Notes under the pieces: generated by a model
What the model saw: the letters and a program-made list of their open reading frames with translations, nothing else
What the model was told of the DNA's origin: nothing
The model's database searches: none
Translations under genes and position numbers: made by a program
Assembly (NCBI GenBank): GCA_035221665.1
Contig: CM069155.1
Coordinates: 4,526,001-4,590,000 of the forward strand
Source of the DNA: Okamejei kenojei
Lineage: Eukaryota
Reading direction: 5' to 3'
DNA: 64,000 bases
In this document: piece by piece, positions 1-62,554 of the stretch
Numbering within the stretch: position 1 is the stretch's first letter
How the letters are laid out: each line of letters opens with the position of its first letter

Positions 1-984
1 TCACAATTAACAGGAGCTTTATAGTTTTTTGCTACTTCATCCATAGCTAGCTCCTGTAACTGGTGGGAGAGCATATACTGAATTGCTTCGGCCAATTCTA
101 CATCAATCGCCTTTCCTGCCTCTCTACGCTCAGCAAACTTCCCAGCAATGTTCGGAATTACCTCCAACCGAACTCCTTTACTGCTCTCCCCCAGCATAGA
201 AACAGTGTCAGCAAACTGCACTGATAGAACATCCTCCTCACAGGCAGGATAGTTCTGCAGCCCTGAAACAGGTGCTGCTAGCACAAGCTCTCCATCAGCC
301 TGGCTTGGGCACCACTCCTCCTCACGGAGCTGGTCCCTGTCGAGCATTCTTTTGTAATAGAATCTCGACGTGGGAGAGCCGTGAGCAAACGGACTCTCCT
401 ATGGAGGGTATAACCTCCAGGCCCGACTCATCTACGGGCCACAGAGACTTGCCAGTGGCCGCCCGCCCTACTGACAAGCCTCCACTGCCCCCCGGCAGTG
501 GGTCCGCAACCACTGGCTGTGTAGCCAGCACCGGACCAGGTGTACCAGACGGGCCTCCATCCTCAACACTCTCCTGGCCACTTTTCCTTTCTAACCCCGG
601 AGCGCCTCACCGACACCTTCTTCACTTTCTGCAACATATCTACCAGAACTCCAAACCGTCGCAGAAAATGACCTGTGGTCAAATTTTTTTAAAAACCTTA
701 CCTCCGTTTAAACTTGTTAACGAAGAACTGCAGATGCTGGAGAATCGAGGGTGAAGTCTGAAGAAGGGTCTCGACCCGAAACGTCGCCCATCTCCTTCGC
801 TCCTTAGATGCTGCTGCACCCGCTGAATTCTCCAGCTTTTCGTGTAACCCTCCGTTTAAACTTACCGCTCGGAGGAGCGCTGCTGCTCCAACCGGCCGAC
901 TGCACCAGCGTCTGACGTCATGACGCACCAACGGCTGTACGGGCTTCTATTCACGTAGTCACTCACGTGACTCCGAAGTAAAAT
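1..984 (-). mobile_element. DIRS1-like retrotransposon copy A, 5' end with gag remnant
   Basis: Minus strand starts at 984 with attttacttcggagtcacgtgagtgactacgtgaa, the same terminus as the element at 1305. A minus-strand frame is open from ~345 to the window edge (...DVELAEAIQYMLSHQLQELAMDEVAKNYKAPVNC), resembling the DIRS gag 'Y.xP.NC' region. There is a frameshift upstream. Confidence 0.75.
716..848 (+). mobile_element. Penelope terminal-repeat mini-insertion with minimal hammerhead ribozyme motif
   Basis: CTGAAGA(758)-A-GGGTCTCGACCC-GAAAC-GTC(785). Flanked by a perfect 15-bp TSD cctccgtttaaactt (701-715, 849-863). Inserted in DIRS copy A. Confidence 0.85.
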
Positions 985-1082
985 ATCAGCCACTTGTTAT
1001 TATACAGCCCCCACAAAACTAACGTCAATGGAACCAAATGCATAGGGATGAATATGATTGGTGCACAATAGTCTGAGCTACA

Positions 1083-1196
1083 GTTTCGATTTAGTTTGGA
1101 AATACAGCACGGAAACCGGCCCTTCGGCCCACCGTGTCCGCACTGACCAGCGACCCCCGCACACACTAGGGACATTTTGTTTTAAATTTACACCAA
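1083..1196 (-). mobile_element. HE1/V-SINE-like tRNA-derived SINE, 3' part (5' part at 6248-6448)
   Basis: Reverse complement of the SINE tail (gggccgaagggccggtttccgtgctgtat). Breaks at ...tttacaccaa and resumes as caccaagccaattaacc after the DIRS element. Confidence 0.8.
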
Positions 1197-4009
1197 AGTC
1201 AAGTCAAGTCAAAAGTCAAAAGAGTTTATTGCCATGTGCCCCTGACAGGACAATGAAATTATTTCTTTGCATAGCACAACAGAACATAGTAGGCATTGAC
1301 TACAATTTTACTTCGGAGTTACGTGAGTGACTTTGTAAAGACCCCGCCAGGCACGCGTGCGCGACATATGTGAGCGACCGGCAGTGAGGAGCGTTGCTCC
1401 TCTACTGCAGGGACCTGCAGGTAAGGAAAACTAACCTGCCATCCTTCTTTCATTTCAGGGACTCTGTTTCACAGAGTACTCCAGGCCGCTTTGGCACTGA
1501 CTGCGGACCGTGGGATGCGGGCAGTCAGCGGCGGCTCTTACAGAATGGAGTCGGGAAGAGCCCGTTGACCCAGGTGGGTCCAGGTTCTCACTCGCCGGTG
1601 AAGGACGGCAGAGCAGCCCGACTCTACACCGCAGCCCGCAGGACACCGCGGGCTGACGGCATTAACAAAGGAGTGGGGGCTAGCCCCAACTCAACTGTAT
1701 TCCACAGCCAGCAGGATCCCTGTCTGTATTAACATGCTTGCAGGCAACGGCTGTGGGCTAATGGCTTTACTTACGCCTTTGCCCCGACTTTATTTTTACA
1801 CCGGGGACCCGGTAGGGGCCGGGCTCACACTCGCCGTTCGCAGGCAGCGACGGCAGAGCGGCAGCCCGAATCTACACCGCAGCCCGCAGGATCACCACGG
1901 GCTGACGGCTACGCTACCCGGAAGTGGACCAGGAGGGTCCGGGCTCGGAGGCTGTCATTCGCGGGCAGCAAAGGCAGAGCAGGAGCTCCGGCTCAACGTC
2001 GCAGGCCGCAGGAATTCCGCGGGCTAACGGCTATGCTACCCTATAGAGGTAGTAGACAGAGCCGGGGTCCCACTCACACACAGGCGGGAGCCTTGCCGTT
2101 AGCGGCAGTCTATGTCCCGCATGTAATTCTGGTCACCATTGGAGCTGGGGGGGGAGAGAATGCGCTCCTCCACCAGAAGCTCATAAAGACCCTCAGGTAA
2201 GATACTAACCTTGAGTTGTTAGCTTCTGTACTAGACTTTGCTTACAGAAACAATGATGGGAGACCAGAATGAAGGCATTGATGTCTGCCTCCCAGGGCCA
2301 TGGGACTTCGGATGGGAGTCAGCGCTCACTATTCCCGAAGCTGCCCGCAACGCCAGCAGCGCCGGCAGCGCCCACTCTGTGGGCCGAGATAAGAAAGTGG
2401 AAACCGGGGAGCCCTGCAGCAGCCAGGACCCGATTCTCCACCACGGCTGGCCATGGAGCCGTAAAGTGGTAGGAGCACCGGGCAGGAGCAGGGTAGGCAA
2501 GACCCTGACTCCCTACCACTGTCACCTAAGCATAGGGACAGTGGAGCTAAGGTGCGTAAACGTGTAATTCGCCTGGCGGCACGTTCTCTCTCCCCAACTA
2601 TGCAGGTCACCAGAGAGAGGACCAGGGGAAGAATCGCACGACAGTCGGTGAAGCCCCACTGTAGGAGCCGGGGTTGACTTTCCACCGGAGCAGCCGCCAG
2701 TTCACGGACCGGTGAAAGATTGAGGCCTGGGTCTGCAAGCCCGCTGTGCGGCCGGCACAGACTCACCGCCGGGGGAGCCTGCCAGAACGCGGGCCGGTGT
2801 AGTCTCATCTCGGTCACCGCACCCGCCTTTAGCGGCAGGATGTGAACGAACGTCGGGACTGGCGGCAAAGCCCGCGCGGACGTCGGGGTATCACGCTTTG
2901 GCGGCCGGACCGACTCATCACCGCTCATGTCTTACCAGACTAGCGGGCCGCCTCCGTCCGGAAGACGGCGGACCAGCAGCAGGTTCGCGCGGGCAGTCGC
3001 TTAGCCACGCAGAAAGCGGCAGGCAGCGACATCCTGTCTAGGCACCCTTGTCGAAGTGCGGGGCGATGACGGAAGCCTCAGGGATTCTCCAGAACCTGAG
3101 GAAGTCGACTTGTCATCCGCAGATGTGGCGGCGGTCGCGTGGCTCGGATGGAGCGTTATCCTAGAGCACAATCTCTGCACCTGGACCAGATGTCCGCCAG
3201 TCCAGGAGACATGCGGCTGGGCCCACCAGCATGTCCACGTCATCGGTGGGGATGCCACGGATCAAGCAGCTGGCGGACACGTAAGATGGGCTGGAGCTGG
3301 AACCTACAGTACCTGAGAAAACCCAGGAGGAACTGCTGAATGTGGTCTCCAAGTTCGCCCCGACGAAGCACACAGGGGCCCAGCATAGACTACCTCAGCT
3401 GCAGGAACAGGTCTTTACCGAGGGCGGATCAAAATTACCCAACTGCATATCAGTACCCAGTCAAACACCATCTGGGGCAACATCAGTCCGGGGATAGGGC
3501 ACAGGAGCTGAAGTTCTAAAACCTCACGTCGGGGAATATCTTTGCCAGGTCGGTTGACAGCATGGAAATGACGGCAGAACAGGAGGATGCTCTTGCAATG
3601 TTAGTCATGAAGTTAACACTTCCCGGAGTATCGCCATCAAACCGACTTCTAAAACACCCATATTTGCGGGTTGTACTGGGCATCTGCGACGCCACCACCG
3701 AGACAGCTGTTCAGTGAGGACCTGCCTAAACAGGTCTAGGACCTGGAAAAAAAATTTAGGAGGCGAAGGCAGACGGGTTGATGAACCCACCTCCCTCCAG
3801 CAGGCTGGCAGTGCGCAGACAAACACCATATGGCAAGACCTCGGGGGCACCTGAAGACCAGTAAGGACCTACACGCCGGCAGCACCTCAACACAATTCAA
3901 CGGAACACCAGGAACCAGAACGTCAGGCCCGCCGGTAACCATGGAGGTAAGGGGGTCTGGTTCTCTTGGAAGTGCTGCATGTTTAACCTCACAAGTAGGA
4001 GAGCGGTTA

Positions 4010-4960
4010 CATACATTCTGGGATGCAAGGGAGCTGATTGTCACTATCCCAGGGAACAAAACTATAGACATAATAGAGGCATGTAACAGCCTTGCTTGCG
4101 CCAGGAAACCGACTATTAGACATACTGCTAAAATAATTGCTAAACTTGTAGCTACATTCTAGCTACATAATTGGGCCGTTACACTATCTAAGCTTACAAA
4201 GAGCAAAATCTCGGCATTAAAAGCGAATGCTGGACATTTTTACGGGCCTATGCAGCCGCCAATCAAGGCATAAATTGAGCTACAATAGTGGATTAGCTAT
4301 GTTTGTGGTTATTAAATCCCATCATTACATCAAACCCATTAGTCGTGTTACAAAACCGACGCAATGCACCAAGGCTGGGGAGCTACCGACACCTTTCCAG
4401 TTGGGGTGGTAGATGGAATTTGCACGAGTCTACTTTTCTTCAATCACAAGGTAATAACTATTTAGAATGCCTGGGAGCATGTCACGGGCTACGGGCTTAA
4501 TGCACTAATCTGCAGCATATGCATTCCGTCTTCATATACCACTGTGGTGGGCGTATTTAAACCTTATGGGTGGTATCAAGTCAATATCTTGTGATGAATT
4601 GGAAAAATTAATTTGCTCTAGTGGATTGAAAGAAATATTTGGATATCAGCTACGTACCTTCCGGTTAAGCACTCAATACAGCATACAATACGGCGGACAC
4701 CAGGTCACAAGTATTTAATATGACATCAAGTGGATGTTGAACCTCCAAATATTTGCTAAAAAACTATAGCCTAATATGGGATCACCAGATATTGACCTCC
4801 TGCACCCAGGTTGAACCATTGGATACCAACATATGTGTCTTGAGAACCAGATCCTGGGGCAGTGACGAATGGACGAGTTCTCGCTACATTGGGGGAAATG
4901 GGTTTTCTATGCTTTCCCCCATTCTGCTTCATCAGATAGATGTTGCAGAAAACGCAACCA
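4010..4960 (+). pseudogene. DIRS pol remnant (RT C-terminal connection, RNase H, probable methyltransferase-like region); RT core missing
   Basis: Frameshifted motifs: 'VTIPGNK...IIAKLVATF' (4040-4160), LQTDA..GWG-like (~4348-4382), 'NYLE' (~4455), 'VAYLNLMGGIKS..C' (~4547-4592) and 'YLPG..N..AD..SQ' (~4655-4710). No YxDD seen. Confidence 0.7.
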
Positions 4961-4979
4961 GATCTGCAACAGAAAGGAC

Positions 4980-7245: not shown

Positions 7246-8079
7246 AGCACCTCCTGTCACAAGTCACACTGACAATGTGATGCTCAGGATGTTGTCATGA
7301 CCCTTGTGTACCCCTTTGCGAGGATGGCCAATTTGCTGGGGCCACACCTCCCCGGAGGCACCTGCTGAAGGACACCCTCTGCTCTGTGTTAACCTGAGAA
7401 GATTTTGAATAAGATAAATACCTGCCAAAATTTTCACATCCACTCCCCACTACCACTGCAGCCCCTCTGTTCCAAAGCTACTCTTCTCCAGGAGGCCATC
7501 CTTAACCCCTTTATCTATATTTTTTCTCTCCTCTTTTCAATGCCCGCTCACTCCCCACTAACCAGCACCTAGCCCCAGCATCTGTTTAAGGTCCCACTTT
7601 TCCAATGCCCCCGTTGGGGTACGCTGGAATTCCTAAGCCATGCTTAAATCTTTTTTATACATTGCATGAACTTGAATCATAGGTCAACTGTAACAGATCT
7701 GAATGGAGTTGCTCTCAAAATGTAACCCACCTCTAATGCAATAAATTATTCTTTCCAGAAGTAATCTTTGGACATCACATTTCCCTCTCTCACTTTCTCT
7801 GGCCCCGCTGTGTCAGTTGTCAAGATCACTCTTCCGGTCACTCTTCAGTTCGCTCATTCCTCCTGACTCACCCCTTCCTTTCCATGGGCACTTCCCCTTG
7901 CTACTGCAACAGGAGTAACACCTGTCCTGACATCTCTATTCTCACCACCATCCAGGGACTCGAACAACCTTCCAGCATTGTGGGTGATAAAAATGGTAGT
8001 GCTGCCTTCAAACATGGAACAGCAGAGCACAAGTAAAATCCCCTTTGGCACAATATTCATGTCAAACAGAGTCATATAG

Positions 8080-9060: not shown

Positions 9061-9270
9061 ATAGACACAAAATGCTGGAGTAACTCAGCGGGACAGGCAG
9101 CATCTCTGGAGAGAAAGAATGGGCGACGATTCGGTTCGAGACCCTCCTTCAGAATGATGTCAGGGGAGTGGGCGGAACTGAGATAGAATGTAGTTGGAGA
9201 CAGTATGGTGGGAGAACTGGAAATGGGGAGTGGATGGAGAGAGAGAGAGAGCAAGCAAGGTCAATTTCAA
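9061..9270 (-). mobile_element. Penelope terminal-repeat fragment with degenerate hammerhead motif
   Basis: atagacacaaaatgctggagtaactcagcgggacaggcagcatc...gggcgacgattcggttcgagaccctccttcag. Confidence 0.75.
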
Positions 9271-9274
9271 GTTA

Positions 9275-10495
9275 AGGGCCTGTCCCACTTGAGCATCATC
9301 TGCGCATAATTTACGCAACATCATTTATGCGTCACGCATTACCCGCGCATGGTGTGCATTACCCGCGCATGGTGTGCATTACTCGCGCACGGTGTGCGTT
9401 ACCCGCGCACGGTGTGCATTACCCGCGCATGGTGTGCATACCCGCGCATGGTGTGCATTACCCGCGCATGGTGTGCATTACCCCGCGCATGGTGTGCATT
9501 CCCACGCATGGTGTGCATTACCCGCGCATGGTGTGCGTTAACCGCGCATGGTGTGCAATTACCGCGCCACGGTGTGCATTACCCGTGCATGGTGTGCATT
9601 ACCCGCGCACGGTGTGCGTTACCCGCGCACGGTGTGCATTACCCGTGCATGGTGTGCATTACCCGCGCATGGTGTGCATTACCCGCGCACGGTGTGCATT
9701 ACCCGCGCATGGTGTGCATTACTCGCGCACGGTGTGCGTTACCCGCGCAACGGTGTGCGTTACCCGCGCACGGTGTGCGTTACCCGCGCACGGTGTGCAT
9801 TACCCGCGCATGGTGTGCATTACCCGCGCATGGTGTGCATTACTCGCGCATGTGTGCTTTACTCGCGCATGGTGTGCATTACTTCGCGCATGGTGTGCAT
9901 TACTCGCGCATGGTGTGCATTTACCCGCGCATGGTGTGCATTACCCGCGCATGGTGTGCATTACCCGCGCATGGTGTGCATTACTCGCGCATGGTGTGCA
10001 TTACCCGCGCACGGTGTGCGTTACCCGCGCACGGTGTGCGTTACCCGCGCATGGTGTGCATACATGGTGTGCTCGCGCATGGTGTGCATTACCCGGCCAT
10101 GGTGGCATTTACCCGCGCATGGGTGCGTTACCCGCGCGTAGCGATACCCGCGCATGGTGTGCATTACTCGCGCATGGTGTGCATTACCCGCGCATGGTGT
10201 GCATTACTCGCGCATGGTGTGCATTACCCGCGCATGGTGTGCATTACTCGCGCATGGTGTGCATTACTCGTGCATGGTGTGCATTACTCGCGCACTGTGT
10301 GCATTACCCGCGCACGGTGTGCGTTACCCGCGCACGGTGTGCATTACTCGCGCACGGTGTGCATTACCCGCGCACGGTGTGCATTACCCGCGCACGGTGT
10401 GCATTACCCGCGCATGGTGTGCATTACCCGCGCATGGTGCCTGGTGATGTAGGCAGTGACACGCAGTCAAGTGTGGCGCCTCAGGATTATGGGAT
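9275..10495. mobile_element. Harbinger-type MITE (left TIR only) hosting a minisatellite
   Basis: Begins (ttaa)gggcctgtcccactt, the same TIR as 32893-33211. The right end is cut by a Penelope insertion. Confidence 0.65.
9336..10439. repeat. 20-bp minisatellite (GGTGTGCATTACCCGCGCAT)n, about 55 copies
   Basis: Directly visible tandem array with variants (..ACTCGCGCAC.., ..GCGTTACCC..). Confidence 0.97.
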
Positions 10496-11580
10496 TCAAA
10501 GGTCAGATTGGGAATGGGAGGGGGAGTTGAAGTGCTGAGCCACCGGGAGACCAGGTAGGTTAAGGTGGACTGAGCTGATGTGTTCAGCGAAACGATTGCC
10601 GAGCCTGCGCTTGGTCTCGCCGATGCACAGAAGTTGACACCTGGAACAGCGGATACAGTAGATGAGGTTGCAGGAGGTGCAAGTGAACCTCTGTCTCACC
10701 TGAAAAGACTATCAGGGTCCTTGGATGGAGTCGAGGGGGGAGGTAAAGGGACAGGTGCTGCATCGCCTACGGTTGCAGGGGAAGTACCTGGGGAGGGGAT
10801 GGTTTGGGTGGAAAGGGATGAGTTGACCAGGGAGTTGCGGAAGGAACGGTCTCTGCAGAAAGCAGAAAGAGGTGGAGATGGAAAGATGTGGCCAGTAGAG
10901 GGATCCCTTTGGTGGTGGCAAAAATGTTGGAGGATTATATGCTGTATGCGACGGCTGATGGGATGGAAGGTGAGGACACGGGGCTTCTGTCCTTGTTGTA
11001 AATGGAGGGAGGGGGAGCAAGAGTGGAGATGAGGGATATCGAGGGGACCCTAGTGAGAACCTTATCTATAATGGAAGAGGGGAACCCCTGTTTCCTAAGG
11101 AAGGAGGACATCTCTGATGATCTAGTATGGAAAACCTCATCCTGGGGCCTATAGTCTGTCTCCTGCGATGGAGACCTTGAGATCTAGAAACAGTTGGGAG
11201 ATGTCGGATATGGTCAAAGTGATTTTGAGTGCAAGATGGAAATTAGTCGTGAAGTTGATGAAGTCAGTGAGTTCTGCATGGGTGCAGGAGGTAGCACTGA
11301 TGCAGTCATCAATGTAGCAGAGATAGAGTTTGGGGATAGGGCCAGTGTACGCCTGGAACAGGGATTGTTCAATGTACCCTACAAAGAGGCAGGCATAGCT
11401 GGGACCCATGCGAGTGCCCATAGCTACACCATGGATTTGGAGGAAGTGGGATGAGTCGAAGGAGAAGTTGTTGCGGGTGAGGACCAGCTCTGCTAGGCGG
11501 AGGAGAGTATTAGTAGACGGGAATTAGCTGGTTCTGTGGTCGAGGTTCCAGAAACGGTAGGGAGATGTCGGAGATGGTTT
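10496..11580 (-). mobile_element. Penelope-like element fragment (RT + GIY-YIG endonuclease)
   Basis: Minus-strand peptides AMGTRMGPSYACLFVGY...LYLCYIDD (PLE RT) and FTCTSCNLIYCIRCSRCQLLCIGETKRRLGNRFAEH (GIY-YIG). Confidence 0.92.
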
Positions 11581-11589
11581 TCAAAAATG

Positions 11590-12330: not shown

Positions 12331-12590
12331 ATGTCTCAACCACCAACCATGGCAGGGTGTTCCAAGCACTCACCACGCACTGTGTAAAAAGGTGTCAAGC
12401 ACATCTCCTTTAAACTTTGCCCCTCTCACGTTGAAGCTACAGAATGCCTTCTAGTAATTGATTTTTGCATCCCAGGAAAAAAGGTTCTGAATGTCTAACC
12501 CACTTATGGCCTCTCATAATTTTATATACTTCTATCAGATCTCACTGCCACTTCTGACATTCCAGAGAAAGGCATTTATTACTTGCCATC

Positions 12591-12689
12591 AGTCTGAAGA
12601 AGGGTCTCAACCCGAAACATCACCCATTCCTCCTCTCCACAGATGCTGCCTGTCCCGCTGAGTTACTCCAGCATTTAGTGTCTATCTTC
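12591..12689 (+). mobile_element. Penelope terminal mini-insertion with hammerhead motif
   Basis: agtCTGAAGAagggtctcaacccGAAAcATCaccc, with an approximate TSD (ggcatttattactt / ggccttaattactt). Confidence 0.75.
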
Positions 12690-12952
12690 GGCCTTAATTA
12701 CTTTCATCTCTTCAATAAATAAATGATTAGTGATTTCACTGAGGATGTGTGTGTATTAATAAAACACAGAGTGAACAATACTGTGATATGAGGGCAAATA
12801 TTCTGTCCTGTGGTGGAACTGACTGGGCCTCTACATATCTTCTCACTTGCAGCCAAACTGTATATTCTCTCCTGTCACACCATGACGTAGCAAATGGCAT
12901 AGTCTTTAGTCCTAAACCGTCAGTGAGGCAAACTGACTAGAGGTTTACTTCT

Positions 12953-13086
12953 GTTTAAGAAAGAATTGCAGATGCTGGAAAAATCGAAGGTAGAGAAAGA
13001 AGAGTCTCGACCCGAAACGTTGCCTATTCCTTCTCTCCATAGATGCTGCCTCATCCACTGATTTTCTCCAGCATTTTTGTCCACCT
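12953..13086. mobile_element. Penelope terminal fold-back mini-insertion
   Basis: Inverted terminal piece joined to gtctcgacccgaaacgtt; approximate TSD ctRgaggttt. Confidence 0.7.
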
Positions 13087-15518: not shown

Positions 15519-15700
15519 TGTGTAGGAAGGAACTGCAGATGCTGGTTTACGCCAAAGATAGCCACAAAATGCAGGAGTAAATCAGCGGGTCAGCCAGCAT
15601 TTCTGGAACGGGTGACATTTCGGGTCGAGACTCTTCTTCAGACTGAGATACCCAGAGATGCTGCCTGTCCCGTTGAGTTACTCCAGCATTTTGTTTCTAT
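15519..15700. mobile_element. Penelope terminal fold-back mini-insertion with hammerhead motif
   Basis: Minus-strand hammerhead motif at 15610-15645, inverted arms, TSD ctgcaaYct (15510-15518, 15701-15709). Confidence 0.8.
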
Positions 15701-16054: not shown

Positions 16055-17000
16055 GCTGACATCCGAGATGTCCTCATTCTTCAGGGAACAGGGATTCCCC
16101 TCCTCTATCAGAGATGAGGTCGCCCACACTTGGTCACTTCAATAACTTACAGCTCCGCCCTTGCTCCCCCTCCTCCCTGTTGCAACAGGGACAGAGCCCC
16201 CCTAGTCCTCACCTTCCACCCCATCAGCCGTCACATACAGCATATAATCCTCAGACATTTTTGCCACCTCCAACGGGATCCCACCACTAGTCACATATTC
16301 CCATCTCCACCCCTTTCCACCTTCCGCAGGGAACATTCCCTCTGCAACCCCCTGGTTAATTCATCCCTTCCCACCCAAATTACCCCCTGCCCAGGTACCT
16401 TCCGCTACAACCGCAGGAAATGCAACACCTGTCCCGATATCTGCTCCCTCGACTCTGTCGAGGGACCCCGACAGTCCTTTCAGATTAGGCAGAGGTTCAC
16501 TTGCACCTCCTCCAAACTCATCTACTGTATCTGCTAGTCCAGGTGTGGACTCCTATATATCGGCAAGACCAAGCGCAAGATCAATGATCGTTCACTCAGT
16601 CGCCTTGGCCCAAATGATCTTCTAGCTGCCGAACACTAACTCCCCCTCCCATTCCCACACTGACCATTCTGTTCTGGGCTTCCTCCATTGGCAGTGAGGC
16701 CAAATGCAAATTGGAGGAACAGCACCTCATATTATGCTTGAGCAGCTTACACCCCAGTGGCATCAATATTGATTTAACTAACTTCAAGGAACCCTTCCAG
16801 CCCCTCTCTGTCTGTTCCTCCCCAGACCTAGTCATCATACTAGTTCATCCATTTGTTCCATGTACTGTCTATATCTTTTGTTCCCCTCTCCCCAATCCTC
16901 AGTCTGCAGAAGGGTCTCGACCCGAAACGTCACCTATTCCTGCTCTCCAGAGATGCTGCCCGACCCGCTGAGTTACTCCAGCATTTTGTGCCTATCTTTA
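16055..17000 (+). mobile_element. Penelope-like element 3' portion (RT C-terminus, GIY-YIG, terminal repeat)
   Basis: RAPLVLTFHP and RQRFTCTSSKLIYCIC motifs; ends with ctgcagaagggtctcgacccgaaacgtcacc (16904-16934). Confidence 0.88.
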
Positions 17001-17540: not shown

Positions 17541-17994
17541 AATGGTTTAATAGCTGTTCAGAGAGATTGGACTGGGATTGTCCTTGGAGCAGAAAAGATT
17601 ATACGAGTGAAATTTTAAAAAAGGTGTTCATAATCCTGAAGGGTTTTGATAGAATAAATAAGGAGAAAATGATTCCGATCTTGGAAGGAACACAGATTTA
17701 AGGTAATTGGTAAAATAAAAACATGAGGGAAATATTTTTCATACTGTCACTGTTCTGATTTGCAAAGCACTGGCTGACAAGATGGTGGTGGAATCAGTAT
17801 GGTTAATATGGAACAAGTGAAGGAAGAACCTGCAGGACAGTGGGATGAGGGACTAATTAAATAGATCGCAAGCAGTAATGCATGAATTGTCGATGTTATG
17901 GTGGCAGAGACAGAACACTCCATGACGGCAAAGGGTAGCAGATGACACTGAAAATATTAGTTGGCTGTGGAGGTCTGTATGAAGCATAGATTAA

Positions 17995-19755
17995 AGATAG
18001 GCACAAAGTGCTGGAGTAACTCAACGGGTCAGGCAGCATCTCTGGAGAAATGTCTTCTTCAGACTGGAAGTATGTGGGGGGGGGGCTGAAGAGCTGGAGG
18101 CGAGAAAAGACCAGGACCTATCTGGGCCAACCACAAATGACCACAGGCAGGGTAGGCCCATTGTTGGCCAGGGAAGGTGTGATTTCAAAAAGGATAAAAT
18201 GTGTATCTCTTTGCAAGATGCAGGGTGGGAAGAAGTGTAGTCCAGATAACTGTGGGAGTCGGTAGATTTGTAATAGATGTCCGTTGATAGTGTCTCCTGT
18301 GACGTGGTTAGAGAGATCGACAAAGGGGAGGGCGGTGTCCAAGGTACCTGCACCTTGCCAAGATGCTATCCCCTACTGTCAATTCCTCTGTCTCTGCCGC
18401 ATCGCCTCCCAAGATGAGGTAGGAAAGAAATGCAGATGCTGGTTTAAATCGAAGGTAGACACAAAATGGTGGAGTAACTCAGCGGGACAGGCAGCATCTC
18501 TGGTGAGAAGGAATGGGTGACCAGATTGACGAAAGGTCTCGACCTGAAAAGTCATCCATTCCAATTATTTTCCTGCCTGTCCCGCTGTTACTCCAGCATT
18601 TTGTGTCTACCCAAGATGAAGTGCTCCCTTCTAGGACATCCGGGATGTCCTCATTATTCAGGGATCCCTGAACGTGGGTTCCCCTCTCCAATCATAGATG
18701 AGTCCCTCACATGTGTCTCCTCCATGTCCCGTAGTTCTGCACTAACTCCCCCATCACCTAGATGCTACAACAAGGACAGCGTTCCCCTGGTCCTCATCTT
18801 TCACCCCACCAGCACCCACATTCTTTGATATTTCCGTCACCTCCAACGGGATCCCACCACTATTCACATCATCCCAACTCTGCTCCGTCCGCAACTCAAT
18901 AGCAATAGGTGCAGGAGTAGGCCATTTGGACCTTCGAGCCAGCTGATCATCCCCAATCAGTACCCCGTTCCTGCCTTCACCCCATATCCCATGACTCCAT
19001 TATCTTTAAGAGCCTTGGTCAACACGTCCCTTTTCACCCAAACCACCCCCCTCCCCAGGTGCCTTCCCCTGCAACCACCTACCCCTTTCCCTCCCTCCTC
19101 GACTCCATTCAGGACCCCCATGACCATATCAGGTGTTGCTGATGAGGGCTTTATGCATTGGCGAGACCAAACGTAGAATCGGCAACCGATCCGCTGGACA
19201 CTTATGCTCAGACTGCTGAGGCCTACGGGATCTACTGGTTGCCAACCATTTCAACTCTCAATCCCATTCCCACACTGACCTCTCTGTCCTGGGCCTCCTC
19301 TATTGCCAGAGTGAGGCTGCAGGCAAATTGGAGGAACAGCACCTCATATTTCGCTTGGGTATGAACATTGAATTCACTAACCTTAGATAACTTCTACCTA
19401 CACTCCCCTCCCTCTCCTCCCTCCTCCCTCCTTCCCTGCCCCCTTCTTCCACCCTGGTCATTTAACCAGTTCCACAGTTCACCACATTGTATCCATCTTG
19501 AGATCAGACCTTCCCTAGCCAACAATCGGCCTTCCAGGGCTCCACCTTACTTGAGGTGAGTTATGGCCGGCCCAGATAGGTCCTCCCGTTCGTCACCTCA
19601 CCACGCAACCCGTACTTTCAGTCAGAAGAAGGGTCCAGACCTGAAACGCCACCCACCCTTTTTCTCCAAAGATGCTGGCTGACCCGTTGAGTTATTCCAG
19701 CATATTGTGCCTGTCTTTGGTATAAACCAGCATCTGCAGTTCTTTGTGTCTACAG
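17995..19755. mobile_element. Penelope-like element with inverted 5' part, a nested mini-insertion (18421-18609) and a CR1 patch (~18898-19013)
   Basis: STDIYYKSTDSHSYLDYTSSHP on the minus strand and VPLVLIFHP on the plus strand. The nested unit has TSD cccaagatgaRgt. Confidence 0.85.
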
Positions 19756-42320: not shown

Positions 42321-42404
42321 AGAGGGATAGGTGTCAGAAGAAAGGTCTCCACCCGAAACGTCACCCATTCCTTCTCTCCAGAGACACTGCCAGTCATTCT
42401 GAGT

Positions 42405-42937
42405 TCAGGGGTTGTCCCACTTTGACGACCTAATCCATGAGTTTAGATTTGAAAAAATGTCAATGTCGTGTTGACTCACCAAAGTAAAAGACCTCCTACT
42501 ACTCTGTCTATGACCTCCTACGACCCCCCCTTGACCTCAGTCCTCTACACCTAAGACCAACTACGACTAGCTATGTGGAAAATGATCACATGATAAAATT
42601 ATGTCTTGTTTACATTTTTCTCTCGGGACAGTTAACGACCTACGACCACCATCACGACCTACTATGACCTACCTATGTCCTACCTACGAGTAAAAAGTAT
42701 CAATTGTTTCATGCCAACCTTTTTTTTAACTCGTGGACATTTTTTATCAGGCTGGAAAAAAACGGCGTGACCTACTTGAGGCCACGAGTACGCGGAGACC
42801 ACTCACGAGCATGAGGAAGAGTTACGAAGACCTCCTATGACCTTCAATGACCTCGTGGCGACCATGCTGCGAGCATGAGTCTAGGGCAAACTTGGCAGAG
42901 ATCGCCAATTAGGTCGTGAAAGTGGGACGGGGGCTTT
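42405..42937. mobile_element. Non-autonomous Harbinger MITE of the 38232 family, inserted in a Penelope terminal repeat
   Basis: ggggttgtcccactttgacgacctaat...attaggtcgtgaaagtgggacgggggct; splits the host sequence ctgagtt|actccagc. Confidence 0.85.
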
Positions 42938-46175: not shown

Positions 46176-46656
46176 TATGTTGCCCTCTCAAAGTGTTCAG
46201 CTGATATTTGATTTGCCGAAGGAGGTGATTAACTGAGATATGTTGAAGATGGACACGAAAAGCTAGAGTAACTCAGCGGGTCAGACACGGAGAGGGAAAC
46301 CAGAGGTATCGAAGGGAAAGGTGTGAAAATGACAGATCAAAGCAGACAAGTCCAGGAAATAGTTCATTGTTGGTTGAGAGGAAAATAAACAGTGAAATTA
46401 ATCAGGAGGACAGTGAAACTAGTCGGAGAACTTGGGTGGGGAGGGATGGAGAGTGAGGGAAAGCAAGGGTTACTTGAAGTTAGAGAAATCAATATTCATA
46501 CCGCTGGGTTGTAAACTGCCCAAGCAAAGTATGAGATGCTGTTCCTCCAAATTGCGTTTGGCCTCACTACAAGATGGCACCTCAGGTAATGCAGCCGTCC
46601 CTCCACAACTCTGCAGTGGCCCAGAGTGCCCTCTGGACTAATTCAGTTCCTCCATT

Positions 46657-46893
46657 TGTGTAAGAAGAAACTGCAGATGCTGGTTTAAACTGAAGATAGA
46701 CACAAAAAGTAACTCAGCCGGACAGGCAGCATCTCTGGAGAGAAGGGGAATGGGTGACATTTCGGGTCTTGACCTGAAACGTCACCCATTCCTTCTGAAG
46801 TCTGAAGAAGGGTCTTGATCCAAAACGTCACCCTTTACTTCTCTCCAGAGATGCTGCCTGTCCCGCTGGGTTACTCCAGCTTTTTGTGCCTAT
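46657..46893. mobile_element. Penelope terminal fold-back mini-insertion with multiple hammerhead pieces
   Basis: TSD attcagWWcctccatt (46641-46656, 46894-46909). A further minus-strand Penelope fragment lies at 46245-46570. Confidence 0.85.
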
Positions 46894-48199
46894 ATTCAGA
46901 ACCTCCATTAGACTGAATTGAAGGAGATATGCAGACGGGATGTTCTTCCCTCACCTTCCCTGCAGTGTAACATCCTCCATCATGAGGTCTACTCACCATC
47001 AGACGATTTTCCCACCATTTCAGATCTTCATTGCTACATTCTAAACAACTTTATAAGAAATAGCTTCCAGCTCAAAAAATAACCGAGGGCCACATTTAAA
47101 CCAAAATCAAATGGCTGAAACTTTAGTGCAGTGACAAATATAAACTGTACGCATAGTACCTCTGCATGAAATAGGATCTCAATTACTCTAACAGGACTGA
47201 CTGTAACTGACTCATAAATATACTGTACGACCTTCCCGACAGGGATAAACAGCGTCTAATAGAAAACCACTGATCGCCCTTGACTATCTTCACTTCAACA
47301 GTATTACGTACATCAGAGCCGACAAAGTCCAAAACCCCTGGACCATCAAGCTCACTGGAACAAATATCAACACAAGTCTGTAATTGTCCAGCGTTGAGTC
47401 GATTGATTTAAAATATGCTTATTCCTCTTTGGTGATCAGTTGGAACATTCGCTCACCATATTAAGCTTCCTTCAAATATAAACGGCCAAATTCTCTTATC
47501 TGTGGCCCTGAAAACTATGGCACTCTGATTGAAAACCAATCTGTTGGACGTGAGAATGAAATAAGCAGCCAAGGTTTAATGTGGTCCTGACTAACACTTG
47601 CATTACCAATTGAGACAAGCATCTGTCATAGTTTTTCTCTGCAACGTCAGAGGCTAAGGGACGACGAGAGAAACATATTTAATGCTGAGAGGCTTAGATA
47701 GGATAGACAGTCAGAACCTTTCTCCCAGGGTGGAAATGTCCACCACTAGAGGGCATAGCTATAAGGTGAGAGGGTGGAGGCTTATTGGAGATGTGCGGGG
47801 AAGCTTTTAACACAGAGGATGGTGGGGGCCAGGAACGCATTGCCAGTGGTGGTGGTGGTGGCAGACACAATAATGGTGTTTAAGAGGTTTAACATAGGCA
47901 CATGGGATTGCAGGGAATAGTGGGATCGGCATCATGTACAGCATGAACATTGTGGACTGAAGGGCCTGTACTGTTCTATGACTAAAGGAAGCAATCCGAC
48001 TATCACAGCCTCTTTTCCTTACTCCGTGTGGCACTGTTTATACCACGCTTACTTTGATGCTCTGAACAACTTCATTTTGCTTGAAGAACAGATGTTAGCC
48101 TTTCTGTGTGCTGAATAATCACTTGTATTCAGCAGCCGACGTCTTCCTTGTAAATGAAGAGCCACATCGCTCTTCAGCCTAAACTGCTGACGATTAAAA

Positions 48200-48417
48200 G
48201 AAGATCAACTCAAATTGCTGGAGTAACTCTGTGGGACAGGCAGCATCTCTGGATAGAAGGAATGGGTGATGTTTCGGGTCGAGACGAGGTCTAAAGATGG
48301 ATCGTGAACCGAATCACCACCCATTCCTTCTCTCCAGAGATGCTGCCTGTCCCGCCGAGTTACTCCAGCGTTTTATGTCCATCTTCGGTTTAAACAAGCA
48401 TCTGCAGTTCCTTCCTT
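48200..48417. mobile_element. Penelope terminal fold-back mini-insertion; another plus-strand terminal fragment at ~48700-48950
   Basis: Inverted arms; ctgaagaagggtctcgacccgaaacatc at 48846-48873. Confidence 0.78.
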
Positions 48418-49999
48418 CGACTTTTAAAATAAATTGTCTTTCCTATTTCAGGGATAACAGCAAAGCTCATTAGAAAAGTAATATAGAATCCAGTCAAATA
48501 TGATTCGTGATTCTATCAAAACAGTACAATTAATTACTTGCCCGGTCACCTCTTGTTTCTAATCATTGATGGAACCTTTGCATTCCACATTTGATAAACA
48601 AATGCTTTTGCTCCCATTTTTCAAGATGTGTCAAAGTACTCTATACGTTGCTTACTATTATGGAGACAGTGACATATCTCAGTTGGGGCAAGGGCTAACC
48701 CCTTTTCACCTAGCCCACAGCTAACAATGGCCAGTTTCCGTTATCATCGTAACTTTTTTTGCATACAGTATCTCTCATTCATTTGTCCTATATCTCTCTA
48801 CATCACCGTCTCTATCTCTCGTTTCCCTTTCCACTGATTCTCAGTCTGAAGAAGGGTCTCGACCCGAAACATCACCCATCCCTCAAAGTTACCCCAGCAT
48901 TTTGTGTCTATCTTCGAGGTAAACCAACATCTGCAGTTCCTTCCTGCACGTGCCATCGTGTAAGCTATGGAAACAAAGTCCTAACTGTCTTCACACATAC
49001 AGACAAAATAACCCATGGCACAATTTTGAAGATTAGGAGAGAAATTCTCACTAATAACCCAACCAAATGCATCCCTTAATCCACCACACTTAAAAGTGAA
49101 TGATTCAGTCACTATCGCCACCTTGTTGTGGGGCTTTCCTGTGCACTAATTGGTTACTGTATTTCCTACAGTAATGAATGCACTTCAAAAGCACTTCATT
49201 GATTCTTGAGGACTTTTGGATGTCCTGAAGTAATAAAAGAAGACACTATCTATCTGATTGCCCGCTTTCTCCTTTTGGTACTCTCTCAGTTGAAGATGAC
49301 GCGTGGCTCAGGCAGCTGAGCTGAACAAAGAGGCAAACTGAATAACTGCATAACCCTCTCTGAAAAAAATAATTAGGTTAAATGTACCAAGTGGTTTATC
49401 AGAGATTGAAGTCTTAACAACAGTTGGCAGCATTTCAGGGGGCATGAAAAAGTAGTTTTGGAGGAGACAGTAGATTGGAGGGATGGATTTAAAAGAGGGA
49501 ATAGTGACTGGGAAATATGTAGAGATATTTACTGCAGAGAAGTGTCAGCAGGTTATAATATGAGAACTGGCTCACCAGCTTTTTTGTGTCTATATTGGGA
49601 TTAAACCAGCATCTACAGTTCCTTCCTACACACTAAAGCTTGGTCAATTTATGATTAGGATAATAAATGTAACCTTTGATCACATTGCACCGTTGCCAAG
49701 GTCCTCCTGTATACAACACCTTAGTCTGTCTCTAACTGACGAGCGCAATATAAATGTTAAAAATTGTTATTTTAAATGTTTTACAGTCCAATAAAGTGAT
49801 TTAATTTTGTTTTGTTAACCTCCATTTAATTATATTGCCTGAGGGTAGATTGATTCAGAATGGAAAGACATGAGGTTGACTCATGTTCAAAGCCAGGCGG
49901 CCTGATAGTTCATACAGTACTGATCTGACTAAAATATAGGAGACTGACAAGTATTGGATGCTAAGTAACTGGTTTTCCTGGACGAAGATCTCTGAACTC

Positions 50000-55096: not shown

Positions 55097-55227
55097 TTGT
55101 TCAGGCTCCGCCGGGCTCTGATGCTGGCTACGATGATGCTTTCTGGCCGAGGAGTCGCCACCGCCTTGAACGTCCCCCTCCAGAACTTTTCGAAGAGCTG
55201 TTTCTCGCCCTGCTGGACGCTGACCAT
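55097..55227 (-). CDS. SRRM4: SRRM4 (nSR100, serine/arginine repetitive matrix protein 4), first coding exon
   Basis: Translates to MVSVQQGEKQLFEKFWRGTFKAVATPRPESIIVASIRARRSLN(K), nearly identical to the human SRRM4 N-terminus as I recall it (MASVQQGEKQLFEKFWRGTFKAVATPRPESIIVASITARK...). ATG at 55227 lies in a perfect Kozak context (gccgccATGg). The exon ends at a canonical donor AA|GTAAGA (GT at 55096-55095); 131 coding nt, phase-2 intron. Confidence 0.95.
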
Positions 55228-56993: not shown

Positions 56994-57150
56994 CTATATT
57001 TCCTTTGATCTGTGGTTTTCACTCCTCACCCTTCCATATCTCTAGACCCTCTCCCCTGACTCAAGGGTGTCGACCCGAAACGTCACCCATTCCTTCTCTC
57101 CACAGATGCAGCCTGTCCCGCTGAGTTACTCCAGCATTTGTGTCTATCTC
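56994..57150 (+). mobile_element. Penelope terminal mini-insertion
   Basis: TSD caggctaa (56986-56993, 57151-57158); gggtgtcgacccgaaacgtcaccc. Confidence 0.78.
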
Positions 57151-59019: not shown

Positions 59020-59380
59020 TAGATTCATAGAGTGATACAGCCTGGAAATAGGCCCTTCAGCCCAACTTGCCCACACCAGCCAACATGTCCCAGCTACACT
59101 AGTCGCACTTGCCTGCGTTTGTCCCATATTCCTCTAAACCTGTCCTATCCATGTACCTGTCTAACAATTCATTAAATGTTGTTATAGTCCCTGCATCAAC
59201 GTCCTCCTCTGGCAGCTTGTTCAATACACCCACCACCATATGTGTGAAAAAGTTACCCCTCAGATTCCTGTTAAATCTTCTCCCCTTCACCTTAAACCTA
59301 TGTCCCCTGGTCCTCGATTTGCCTACTCTGGGCAAGAGACTCTGTGCATCTACCCGATCCATTCCTCTCACGATTTTATT
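59020..59380 (-). mobile_element. CR1 3' end (subfamily sharing its tail with the SINEs)
   Basis: SRTRGHRFKVKGRRFNRNLRGNFFT; the reverse-complement tail is gggctgaagggcctatttcc. Confidence 0.88.
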
Positions 59381-59904
59381 CACAACGTTTGCCAACTTGA
59401 CAACTGTGATGACCTTTCAAAACCACTTCACTGTTGATAGATGTTTCTGTGTGTCGTGAGGTTGTGAAAGAGGTAAAATAAATGGATGTCTTTCCATGGC
59501 ATGCTCACTCTCCCAAGCTGCGCTGTACTCCCAAACACACCTTTGGAAGAAGTTACACCGTTTTATTTCTTGCAAGACCAGCCATTCTCATAACAAGATC
59601 TCAGTCAGGATCTGTATTTCTATAGAAGGAAGAAGAGGCTTTGACAATCTCGTGGGCAAGCAGCAGCAGTGGCTTATACTGTAGGTGGCAAGATTGCTGG
59701 CCAATTACAGGGCATGGTGTCTACTTTATCTTTGCTCTTTATGTTGTAGGATGGCTTTGCTTATTTGAGCAGGAGAGCAGAGAGCAGGATTTCAGCTTGT
59801 GCCGATGTATTTATTTCAATTGCCATGGTGTGGGCTAATAGCCTCTGTCCTGCTATTGTATATTTGTTAGCAGCGACCAAGTGTTGAATCCATGTCAATC
59901 GTAT

Positions 59905-60870
59905 AGAAATATATAAAATTATTTTTAAAAGTTGTTTTAAAATGTTATTAATATTATTAGAAGCAATTGTACAGGGATAAGACGATCGACATAATAGTTA
60001 TACAACTATATATAGTTGTATAACTATATATCTTCCCCCCCCCCACCCATCCCCACCCATCCCTGGCATCGGGTTTAAATTTGTGTTTAACCATTCTGTT
60101 GTTGCAGAAATTCAGTAAAAGGGAACCATGTCTTAAGAAATTGATCTGGTTTTTCCGCCAAGACAAGCCTAATGTTTTCCAAATGTAGTGTCTCAGACAT
60201 ATCCGTAATCCACATCTTCACTGTAGGGACTGTTGTCTCTTTCCAAAATGTAAGTATTAATTTTTTCGCCGTTATTAGGCTGTAATTGAGGAAACGTCTT
60301 TGAAATATCGTTAGCTTAGAGCAGGCCTCCGGCATACCTAATGTGATCAGTTTTATATCTGGTTCCAATTTAATTTTTAGTATTTTGGAGAAGGTATCAA
60401 ATATTCCCCTCCAGAAGTTTTCTAACTTTATACAGGAAGCGAAGGAATGGGTTATAGTCGCTTCTTGGAGGAGACATTTATCACAAATCGGAGAGACGTT
60501 TGGGAAGATCTTGTTCAATTTGATCTTTGAATAGTAGAGTCCATTGCAGTATTTTAAATACTATCAGGGAGTGCCTAACATTGAGAGAGCAGTAGTGTAT
60601 GTATAGAAGGCTCTCCTCCCAGCTATCCTTTGAAATTAGTAAACCCAATTTGTCTTCCCATGCTCGCCTATGCATCTCAGAAGATGGGATGTGTGCAATT
60701 AAAAGAGTATTGTAAGTGTAGGATATTAACTTGCTTGTATCAGCCTGTCTATTCATGCATTCGTCTAGTATATCTGGACCCATAAAGTGACAGTCTTGTG
60801 TATATGTTTTCACATAGTCTCGGATTTGAAGATATCTAAAAAAATACTTGCTTTCAAATGACGTGTAAAT
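59905..60870 (-). mobile_element. L1-clade LINE ORF2 3' end
   Basis: YFFRYLQIRDYVK and the CCHC zinc knuckle CDKCLLQEATITHSFASC..LENFW, plus AKKLILTFWK; AT-rich 3'UTR. Confidence 0.88.
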
Positions 60871-60871
60871 C

Positions 60872-62057
60872 ATATAGAAATATATAGAATTCTTAAGGGA
60901 TTGGACAGGCTAGGTGCAGGAAAAATGTTCCTGATTGGATTGGACAGACTAGATGCAGGAAAAAGTCTGAAGAAGGGACTCGCCTATTCCTTCTCTCCGC
61001 CTGAAACATTGCCTAATCTTTCTCTCCATAGATGCTGCCTCACCCACTGAGTTTCTCCAGCATTTTATGTCTAACTTCCTGATGCACAGAGTCTCTTGCC
61101 CAGAGTAGGGCAATCGAAAATCAGAGGACATAGGTTCAAGGTGAAGGGGAAAGATTTAATAGGAATCGAGGGGTAACTTTTCACACAGAGGGTGGTGGGT
61201 GCCAGAGGTGTTAGTTGAGGCTGGGACTACCCGAACATTTAAGAAACAGTTAGACAGCTACATGGATAGGACAGGTTTGGAGTGATATGGACCAAGCGTA
61301 GGCAGGTGGGATTAGTGTAGATGGGACATGTTGGCCAGTGAGGGCAAGTTGGGCTGAAGGGCCTGTTCCCACACTGTATTGCTCTATGACTATGTCAGGG
61401 GAGTCAAGAACCAGGGGTCACAGTTTAAGAATAAGGGGGTAGCCCATTTAGGACTGTAATATAACTGAGATGATGAAAACATTTCACCTAGCGAGTTGTG
61501 AATCTGTGGAATTCTCTGCCACAGAAGGAAGTGGAAGCCAATTCACTGGATGTTTTCAAGACAGAGTTAGATCTTGCGGCTGACGGAATCAAGGGTTATG
61601 GGGAGAAAGCAGGAACGGCGTACTGATTTTGGATTATCAGTCATGATCATATTGAATGGCGGTGCTGGCTCAAAGGGCCAAATGGCCTACTGCTGCACCT
61701 ATTTTCTGTTTCTATGTTTCTATGTTTCATGTCCTATTACCTCTAAGTCAAGAACCAGGGGCCACAGACTTAGAATAAAGGTGAGGCCATGTAAGTCTGA
61801 GGTGAGAAAAAACTTTTTCACACAGAGAGTTGTGAATTTGTGGGATTCCCTGCCACAGAGTGCAGTGGAGGCTAAATCACTGGATGCATTTAAGAGAGAG
61901 TTAGATAGAGCTCTAGGGGCTAGTGGAATCAAGGGATATGGGGAGAAGGCAGGCACGGGTTATTGATTGGGGCAGATCAGCCATGATCACAATACATGGC
62001 GGTGCTGGCTCGAAGGGCCGAATGGCCTCCTCCTGCACCTATTTTCTATGTTTCTAC
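60872..62057 (+). mobile_element. Cluster of nested CR1 3' ends with a Penelope terminal piece (60963-61078)
   Basis: Three CR1 tails ending at ~61394, ~61725 and ~62056. Confidence 0.85.
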
Positions 62058-62317
62058 CTGTACACTGTGATTGAGCAGATCATCATTGCCAAGATGAGAT
62101 ACCTTGAGTTGATTTCCTGCCACTGGAACAATGACTTGTTGTTTAGTGTCAACAGTAGTATCTGGAGCCATTCCTTTCACATCTGACTCATGCAGGTTTG
62201 ATGTCGAGAGATTTGTTCCCAGCCCAAATTGAAGTTTGTCCATAATTACTGTGGGGAAATATTGACGATGAGCTGTTGTATAGTTTCAGAGATCAGACTG
62301 GGGTCTGTTTAGTTTTA

Positions 62318-62554
62318 CATCTCTGGATAGAAGGAATGGGTGACGTTTTGGGTCAAAACCCTTCTTCAGTAGTTCTATATCTCTCTATATCACCATCTCT
62401 ATCTCTCATTTCCCTTTCCCCTGACTCTCAATCTGAAGAAGGGTCTTGATCCAAAACTTCTCACATTCCTTTTCTCCAGAGATGCTGCCTGCCCCGCTGA
62501 ATTACTCCAGCATTTTGTGTAAACCGGCATCTGCAGTTCCTTCCTACACATTTT
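62318..62554. mobile_element. Penelope terminal fold-back mini-insertion with two opposed hammerhead motifs
   Basis: TSD gtctgtttWgtttta (62303-62317, 62555-62569); motifs at ~62340 (-) and ~62433 (+). Confidence 0.82.

Follow-up and report, generated by a model that had tools for sequence, protein, structure and literature searches.

Penelope-like elements (PLEs) of the Neptune clade have been described as encoding a reverse transcriptase (RT), a C-x4-C-x2-C linker and a GIY-YIG region, and as harboring a hammerhead in their terminal repeats, the pseudo-long terminal repeats or pLTRs (PMC8557442, PMC3846280). Heavy 5' truncation, target-site duplications (TSDs) of 8-10 bp, solo pLTRs, and head-to-head inverted pLTRs with palindromes at their junctions are among the recorded features of their insertions, together with an optional tail of 30-40 bp on one end of the element (PMC8557442, PMC3846280). 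The hammerheads of PLEs are minimal and mostly solitary, with an extra base between position 9 and helix II, a G-C first pair and an ACGT palindrome, and pairs of them on opposite strands, 100-700 bp apart, have already been ascribed to truncated PLEs (PMC4209133). All these characters recur in a 64,000-nt stretch of Okamejei kenojei DNA (assembly GCA_035221665.1, contig CM069155.1, positions 4,526,001 to 4,590,000; hereafter the window), which is vertebrate DNA rich in old repeats. What distinguishes it from the Neptune PLEs described in these sources is that the inverted and direct pLTRs are mostly paired without an open reading frame (ORF) body, and that their 5' ends pile up at one site. 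An earlier note, made from the letters alone, had singled out these short pieces as a swarm of hammerhead-bearing mini-elements that might form an under-described system. We conclude that these "minis" are almost certainly insertions of a Neptune-type Penelope-like retrotransposon that were dead on arrival and form no family of their own.

Copies of the terminal unit were located by iterative local alignment within the window, a run on the reversed window serving as control. Low-complexity matches at 55.8-58.5 kb were dropped, as was one at 15138 whose score (28) equals the control level, and a weak match adjoining an N gap at 25093 was counted apart. The unit, of ~135 nt, is found at 29 loci in 39 scorable arms, or ~3.8 kb (6% of the window); the repeated unit noticed earlier is thus real, but more abundant than the 20 or so copies then reported. 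Ten of the 29 loci are short head-to-head fold-backs, 11 if one long inverted copy is included, and the remaining loci are single arms. The view that most units are fold-backs therefore holds for eight of the ten loci on which it was based, those at 26140 and 56994 being single arms, but not for the whole set. ORF remnants occur in 5 of the 28 insertions, about 23 being without any, and a complete ORF is absent from all 28. The arms diverge from their consensus by a median of 7.6%, in a star-like manner, and sort into at least two subfamilies (A and B), with minis in at least two. Beyond the window, a protein search with one translated unit gave no candidate, while a search with an alignment of 13 window translations gave 17 matches, one of them in a Rhinoraja longicauda gene model. 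HMMER over representative proteins gave 12 matches, of which three (P0121, P0128, P0131) are unrelated repetitive proteins and were dropped. Twenty predicted peptides from other contigs contain the terminal unit.

The parent element can be recognized from its coding remnants. The RT fragment at 11149-11523 (-) has its nearest named relatives in Amblyraja radiata (80%) and Leucoraja erinacea (77%), and tblastn with RT plus GIY-YIG relatives gives collinear matches on 11556-10493 (-) and 16059-16788 (+). Further ORF remnants, at 18183-19387, 31282-31425 (-) and 46473-46565 (-), align to the same relatives, in which Pfam finds RVT_1 and GIY-YIG; the copies in the window are remnants with frameshifts. 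The RT catalytic core is present in the copy at 11152-11556 (-) and not in that at 16055-17000, so that the description of the latter as an RT/GIY-YIG-coding copy ending in the unit is correct for the unit, the end of the thumb, the linker and the GIY-YIG region, but not for the RT core. The translation of 10700-10830 (-) shows the C-x4-C-x2-C linker before the endonuclease, and a Cys-rich linker between RT and endonuclease marks Neptune and Nematis elements (PMC8557442). Because of this linker and of the host, the parent, an endonuclease-containing PLE, probably belongs to the Neptune clade. No partial-tandem full-length copy (pLTR-ORF-pLTR) is present in the 64 kb, and no outside peptide reads from the tail into the ORF start. 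Within the unit, the frame of an ATG near +50 (numbering below) is closed by a stop near +101; a second frame is open across the unit, and no relative with in-frame attached ORF sequence was found for it. In the Poseidon element of Anolis the ORF starts at helix II (PMC11167929), whereas here no ORF start within the unit could be shown.

Positions in the unit are counted from the first C of the CTGAAGA core (+1), with helix II at +9 to +20, GAAA at +21 to +24 and GUC at +26 to +28, after which hammerhead cleavage, if any, would be expected. The consensus fits a minimal type I hammerhead, with a CUGANGA core, the extra base, a 4-bp helix II, GAAA, an ACGT palindrome for helix III, and GUC. In helix II and helix I together, 90% of the cells pair, versus at most 49% when the register is slid. 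There are no more than 2 bp in helix I, as in D. virilis; the hammerheads described elsewhere have 7-8 bp in helix II and 4-5 bp in helix I (PMC4209133), and any activity in the present case is putative. Core and 4-bp helix II are intact in 2 of the 19 motif-spanning arms, at 758-785 (+) and 26208-26235 (-), exactly the two singled out before. Since Rfam gave no hammerhead match for the whole window or for the intact copy near 26 kb, the assignment relies on the published minimal descriptor; the two Rfam matches at E<=1 in the whole window are both miRNA-like hairpins, one of which is the 48185 fold-back. Minimum free energy (MFE) folding lent no support to a monomer hammerhead in any of six copies (z -1.2 to +1.6). 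The core is mutated at 14 of 241 non-CpG positions (5.8%), against 118 of 1988 outside it (5.9%, p=1.0), CpG sites within the motif have changed in 38 of 171 cases, and covariation amounts to one cell with both sides changed, a level reached in 230 of 500 shuffles. The neutral core rate and the lack of covariation show that the inserted hammerhead copies decay neutrally, which is silent on the activity of the source element. No locus of the window has two complete motifs in direct orientation and none of 31 rows from Tandem Repeats Finder is an array of the unit; only the locus at 46657 has a direct partial repeat, without the first core box. Cleavage at another GUC (-1 to +1) was considered and rejected, there being no helix I register for it and the arms starting upstream of it. 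As to contaminant contigs, an exact motif scan of a bacterial and archaeal genome collection gave 0 matches.

The outer ends of the insertions are strongly constrained. The 3' ends of 18 of the 39 arms lie at +88 to +99 and those of 15 at +123 to +136 (33 together), with six elsewhere, and these two sites, ~35 nt apart, delimit the known optional PLE tail. In all 11 inverted copies one arm is tailed and the other is not (p=0.003 if arms were paired at random). TSDs of 8-15 bp with 0-1 mismatch are present at all ten loci for which they had been reported, although the locus at 46657 ends at 46901 instead of 46893; that of 15519-15700 (9 bp, 1 mismatch) was overlooked by the automatic scan and is shown by direct comparison. 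Four others flank 9061-11589, 12585-12693, 12947-13086 and 27507-27614. Among 200 random intervals, searched within +-10 nt, two gave a TSD score of at least 8 and none a score of at least 9; the real loci were scanned with a wider window than this null, which makes the TSDs of 7-8 bp weaker. The TSDs are A+T-rich (96 of 145 bases, or 66%, vs 54%; p=0.003). It is thus confirmed that the unit represents a PLE terminal repeat with its hammerhead and that its pieces were retrotransposed.

The 5' ends are equally far from random. Among the 24 arms that reach +4, 15 stop at -10 to +4, with a mode at -2, and the other nine run into the 3' untranslated region (UTR); none ends at -20 to -11. The stop rate at -10 to +4 is 22-fold the per-base rate at +21 to +65 (p=6e-10, for a window chosen post hoc). 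Simulated uniform ends yield 15.2% calls in this edge window vs 14.1% true ones, and the peak at -2 is therefore not created by end-calling. Nor can an unrecognised subfamily UTR explain it, since the two arms of a fold-back lie 0-5 nt apart, most junctions having 2-3 filler bases. The 3' UTRs of the long copies diverge upstream of -3, and the fixed stop coincides with this boundary of the conserved module. A further seven arms end within helix II, a 7.6-fold excess (p=0.001). The proposal that the ribozyme delimits the ends finds no echo here: none of the 39 arms starts at +29, one starts at +26, and this region (+26 to +32) contains a single end, the main stop lying ~30 nt upstream, which argues that the templates were uncleaved.

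How the arms are paired is also informative. Each of the ten short fold-backs has a single edge arm, i.e., one that stops at -10 to +4 (p=0.0055), while the partner stops at +10, +11, +11, +12, +26, +34, +44, +88, about +91 or -60. In seven of the ten the tail is on this truncated partner, the edge arm being untailed. The ten junctions are all distinct (0 of 45 pairs shared), and one of them, at 46657, has its centre in the helix II palindrome, where the arms overlap by 5 nt. Edge arms are also fused to the ORF N-terminal region at 31056 and to a second repeat piece at 46657. The -2 stop and the one-edge-arm rule hold in subfamilies A and B of the window. Of the 20 outside peptides, seven look like fold-backs on visual inspection, no two with the same junction, and five of these have at least one edge arm. 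No junction is thus repeated at unrelated loci among the ten window fold-backs or the seven outside peptides. The clustering of junctions in or beside the motif is borne out, and neither of the outcomes foreseen in the earlier note, a new family or ordinary random truncation, fits: the junctions are unique, yet the ends are not randomly placed, which excludes purely random truncation. A GA precedes -2 in three of the seven exact-edge arms (753-756, 46797-46800, 48286-48289; p=0.014, post hoc); at 716 and 46657 it reads as a short duplication of the core start, of the kind expected from telomerase-like realignment at a template end, or as a tiny spliced exon.

Two known processes offer parallels. 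In L1 twin priming, two primed cDNAs are joined to give an inversion, the second primer annealing at a variable internal site, and retroviral strong-stop DNA is a short cDNA that is copied up to the very 5' end of the RNA before it jumps. Unlike in the L1 case, both outer ends are here fixed 3' ends of the element. The explanation that we prefer, to which we give about an even chance, is twin priming at two internal start sites, with one cDNA running to a fixed template end and being joined to the other. A staggered cut by the endonuclease would generate the TSDs of 8-15 bp, and each nick would prime one cDNA at one of the two start sites. Priming in the 5' terminal-repeat copy would leave a template of 95-135 nt, and the cDNA would run off at about -2, probably the RNA 5' end; the CTCAGT there, with its A at -2, is initiator-like. 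If the run-off 3' end were joined to the other target end, a solo unit would result; if joined to the second cDNA, at a position that varies but is often within the helix II palindrome, and with trimming of the partner flap, a fold-back; and if joined to another template, the fusion to the ORF N-terminus (31056) or to a repeat piece (46657). The hammerhead would be carried passively, supplying a palindrome for joining, the ends not being set by cleavage. The one-tail rule and the tails on truncated arms would be expected from twin priming, and the single complete arm from a finished cDNA jumping onto its partner; a single cDNA snapping back could not yield the tail on the truncated arm seen in seven of ten cases. 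While the end distributions and junctions are seen directly in the sequence, the enzymatic steps and the nature of the stop are what they suggest.

The scheme has biochemical precedents. In the Poseidon system, RT starts at two internal sites downstream of the hammerhead that bound the tail, the template is the uncleaved RNA, and both strands of the target are nicked and extended by the PLE protein, which prefers A+T-rich targets (PMC11167929); the window would resemble it in all these respects. In D. virilis, the promoter is internal to the pLTR (PMC2377424). Several points nevertheless weigh against run-off at an RNA 5' end. The bases at -2 also read as a splice acceptor (pyrimidine tract, CAG), and in D. 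virilis the intron end abuts the hammerhead, at the 5' end of helix I (PMC4209133); -2 is thus a putative transcript 5' end. The window contains no full-length element or upstream pLTR-ORF junction, and the start of an upstream pLTR is not seen in it. The exact -2 starts are preceded mostly by A, with no cap-like extra G. The paired arms of 15519, 62318 and 48185 differ at subfamily-like sites, and with a within-locus arm distance of 12.9% vs 13.6% to other loci (p=0.38 in a shared-variant comparison that is uninformative), a common template of the two arms is not demonstrable. Outside fold-backs, at amino-acid resolution, have one edge arm in three of seven cases, two in two and neither in two: the -2 stop recurs outside the window, whereas the strict one-arm rule does not. 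Finally, the biochemistry comes from a lizard Poseidon element, of another clade than Neptune, and the numbers are small and drawn from one window.

Twin-primed insertion might also take place from the 3' terminal repeat, with the minis as extreme 5' truncations and the -2 stop as a barrier in the RNA, such as a 3' splice site occupied by splicing factors, a lariat, a spliced junction or a structure edge. The pyrimidine tract and CAG before the core are kept in all subfamilies despite differing UTRs, and the D. virilis intron end at the 5' end of helix I (PMC4209133) points the same way; some arms extend to -6, -8 or -10, a spliced exon could lengthen the 2-bp helix I, and a tiny first exon could account for the GA of the three exact-edge arms. 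The acceptor is not joined to any exon sequence that the arms share, however, the mode lies at -2 rather than at the putative branch A at -8, and nine of 24 arms pass the site with none ending at -20 to -11, all of which makes a barrier unlikely, although it is the main rival of the run-off scheme. Rather unlikely, too, is that the unit from -2 to +135 comprises a promoter and both RT start sites, solo copies being transcribed and re-mobilised in trans as a parasite of Neptune resembling a short interspersed nuclear element (SINE). This possibility survives the uniqueness of the junctions because fold-backs would be built afresh at each insertion by twin priming. It agrees with the large share of insertions without ORF (about 23 of 28) and with subfamily B, recognized by linked changes at +47, +59 and +60, whose five members (716, 12947, 26140, 27507, 60964) are minis only, with 0/5 UTR- or ORF-linked copies vs 9/23 for the others (p=0.12); moreover, rotifer pLTRs are enough in cis for mobilisation in trans (PMC3846280), and non-autonomous PLEs with pLTRs are known in Chlamydomonas (PMC8557442). 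On the other hand, the minis of subfamily A match the terminal repeats of ORF-bearing copies, divergence is star-like, no mini-only lineage is demonstrated among the window copies, and no flank transduction common to different loci is seen in the window.

For inverted pLTRs, self-priming on an antisense template has been proposed (PMC3846280), and this, or the snap-back of a single cDNA at palindromes, could make the head-to-head form. The excess of ends in helix II, the palindrome-centred junction of 46657 with its overlap, and two outside peptides that look folded back at the palindromes of helices II and III would suit it, but nine of ten junctions lack symmetry, being blunt or having short fillers, both outer ends lie at the two start sites, and the truncated arm so often carries the tail that we regard this origin as improbable. 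Spread of the fold-backs from masters, as a non-autonomous retrozyme-like family, was one of the two proposals of the earlier note. Metazoan retrozymes of the non-LTR type are likewise small and non-coding, with a type I hammerhead and kinship to PLE pLTRs (PMC7229834; bioRxiv 10.64898/2026.07.22.740005); the preprint counts dispersed monomers too and includes one chondrichthyan. They form head-to-tail tandems with at least two complete motifs and circular RNA, whereas the window minis stand alone or head to head, and their minimal motif is broken in most cases. High density, a narrow size range, TSDs and the recurrence of similar junction classes (+10 to +12 four times, a tail-only arm twice) would be in keeping with a master family. 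Such classes differ in filler and in the tailed arm, however, no junction is shared, an antisense inverted arm cannot be a dimer partner, no tandem array or pair of direct complete motifs exists, the core decays neutrally, and minis belong to at least two subfamilies. A single master behind at least 40% of the fold-backs is excluded (p=0.046), many small families being compatible with ten loci. A master family is accordingly very improbable, and the window units are members of endonuclease-containing PLEs, not retrozymes. Least credible of all is that self-cleavage of the template by the hammerhead sets the ends. In its favor are one arm with its start at +26 and two outside peptides with starts near +28, but the absence of starts at +29 and the retention of the whole core in most arms speak against it, as does the predicted energy of the hammerhead helices (-3.9 kcal/mol, vs -10.5 for a competing hairpin at +3 to +40); in addition, cleavage proved dispensable when the lizard element was inserted in vitro (PMC11167929).

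The ten fold-backs illustrate the diversity of the junctions. That of subfamily B at 716-848 joins an inverted tail-only arm (about +91 to +124, -) through GA to a direct arm that starts at -2 and contains the intact hammerhead of 758-785, within a 15-bp TSD, and that at 12947-13086, also of subfamily B, joins an inverted tail arm (+88 to +131) to a direct arm (+4 to +94; TSD 10 bp, 1 mismatch). At 15519-15700, a tail arm (-6 to +131, -), a 3-nt filler and a short arm (+44 to +94, +) follow each other within the TSD given above. The fold-back at 18418-18609, with a clean 10-bp TSD, consists of a tail arm (+26 to +128, -) and a direct arm (about -3 to +91), and sits inside the ORF of an older insertion of the same element. 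At 20195-20398, a tail arm (about +34 to +129, -) is followed by a re-copied piece of tail at the junction and a direct arm (-3 to +94; TSD 11 bp). The locus at 23733-23931 has an arm from -2 (or -8) to +63 (-) and a tail arm from +11 to +132 (+), with a TSD of 13-16 bp; that at 33552-33773 has a tail arm from about -4/-10 to +128 (-) and a short arm from +12 to +95 (+), with a TSD of 11 bp (1 mismatch). In the three-part mini at 46657-46901, the tail arm (-) folds back in the helix II palindrome, and a direct piece (+9 to +41), GA and a direct arm (-2 to +96) follow, with a TSD of 8 bp. At 48185-48416, where no TSD was found, an arm from +11 (-) is joined by a 3-nt filler to a tail arm (-1 to +126, +), and at 62318-62554 an arm from +1 to +52 (-) is joined by a 2-nt filler to a long tailed arm (-60 to +136, +; TSD 15 bp, 1 mismatch).

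Solo units are located at 12585-12693 (+; -4 to +98; TSD 10 bp, 1 mismatch), 26140-26241 (-; about -8 to +96; subfamily B, with the intact hammerhead of 26208-26235; TSD 9 bp), 27507-27614 (-; +16 to +131; an old copy of subfamily B with a weak 7-bp TSD), 29806-29884 (-; +17 to +95; no TSD found), 42333-42405 (+; -1 to +71) and 60964-61078 (+; -2 to +96; subfamily B, inside a CR1 fragment). In the last case, ~28 nt between TSD and unit (60900-60964) resemble re-copied upstream target DNA, i.e., a templated filler. A short tailed fragment (+75 to +134) lies at 49575-49635 (+). Single arms with 3' UTR upstream are found at 34715-34910 (-; short end at +96, upstream limit approximate), 48727-48949 (+; tailed, with an internal deletion) and 56994-57150 (+; core deleted, short end at +94, TSD 8 bp). 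At 46245-46568 (-), the ORF C-terminus and 3' UTR are joined to +54 to +96, the hammerhead being deleted, and at 31056-31425 (-) a tailed unit from -2 is fused to the fragment of the ORF N-terminal region, which may be read as a template jump at the fixed stop, the upstream limit not being fixed.

Among the coding copies, the 5'-truncated one at 9061-11589 (-) retains the RT core (11152-11556), the thumb, the C-x4-C-x2-C linker, the start of GIY-YIG, the 3' UTR and a unit with the short end. It was inserted within a CR1 fragment with a 9-bp TSD and is split, between endonuclease region and 3' UTR, by a 20-bp satellite of 56 copies (9336-10439). The 5'-truncated remnant at 16055-16998 (+) comprises the thumb end, the linker, the GIY-YIG region, the 3' UTR and a unit to +95, without the RT core; no TSD was found for it. 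The older long inverted copy at 17994-19745, host of the mini at 18418, has a short-ended arm, 3' UTR and an ORF piece on (-), and an ORF remnant, 3' UTR and a tailed unit on (+); in this copy, near 19.5 kb, a strong splice-donor-like site precedes the CAG by ~70 nt. A short 3' UTR motif is common to otherwise divergent subfamilies (18110-18190, -; 19520-19600, +; 48700-48740, +), and small ORF fragments of the same Penelope element without terminal unit occur at 7818-7967 and 25946-25999.

Elsewhere in the window, 55129-55227 (-) has a start codon and a short coding exon that ends at a GT donor; Pfam gives no match, and it is presumably the opening coding exon of SRRM4/nSR100, which regulates neural microexons. 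In that case the window downstream of it on (-) would be largely intronic, with the intact hammerhead of 26208-26235 in the sense of the putative SRRM4 pre-mRNA, the complete motifs being without clear strand bias. Pfam offered no name for any of the six other ORFs checked. Opposite-strand ORFs without Pfam match occupy 38383-39177, where 38452-38832 (+) is presumably a Harbinger/PIF nuclease fragment and its (-) partner presumably MADF-like, and the G+C-rich region at 1400-4200 contains RT-like fragments, also without Pfam match, which resemble a DIRS/Ngaro element. CR1-type LINE (long interspersed nuclear element) fragments lie at 21341-22523 (with RVT_1 at 21341-22081), 23950-24330, 32058-32680 and 59099-59416, and 60087-60909 is presumably an L1/Tx1-like C-terminal fragment. 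A near-perfect 24-bp inverted repeat at 33021-33083, unrelated to the unit and with a weak match to a miRNA model, is perhaps a small DNA-transposon derivative, and 62980-63727 is a 31-bp tandem repeat of ~24 copies.

To call these minis an under-described system was an overstatement, as their architecture is largely published (PMC4209133, PMC3846280, PMC8557442). The fixed 5' stop at the hammerhead edge and the pairing rule, in contrast, were not found in the open literature, to which the search extended, subscription journals, Repbase/Dfam and supplements being outside its scope. The main text of the Poseidon study does not treat 5' stops or fold-back junctions, and the later steps of PLE integration were left unvalidated there (PMC11167929). 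The element itself is ordinary, and its value is mechanistic, as it bears on how PLE cDNAs are finished and joined and on how pLTRs and inverted pLTRs arise. With a density of 6%, two fixed 3' ends and one fixed 5' stop, this question becomes testable by counting junctions. It also carries a warning, namely that solitary minimal hammerheads retrieved in genome scans are mostly neutral debris. Should the units be SINE-like parasites of Neptune after all, the unsolved second half of Penelope integration would be recorded directly in thousands of genomic junctions.

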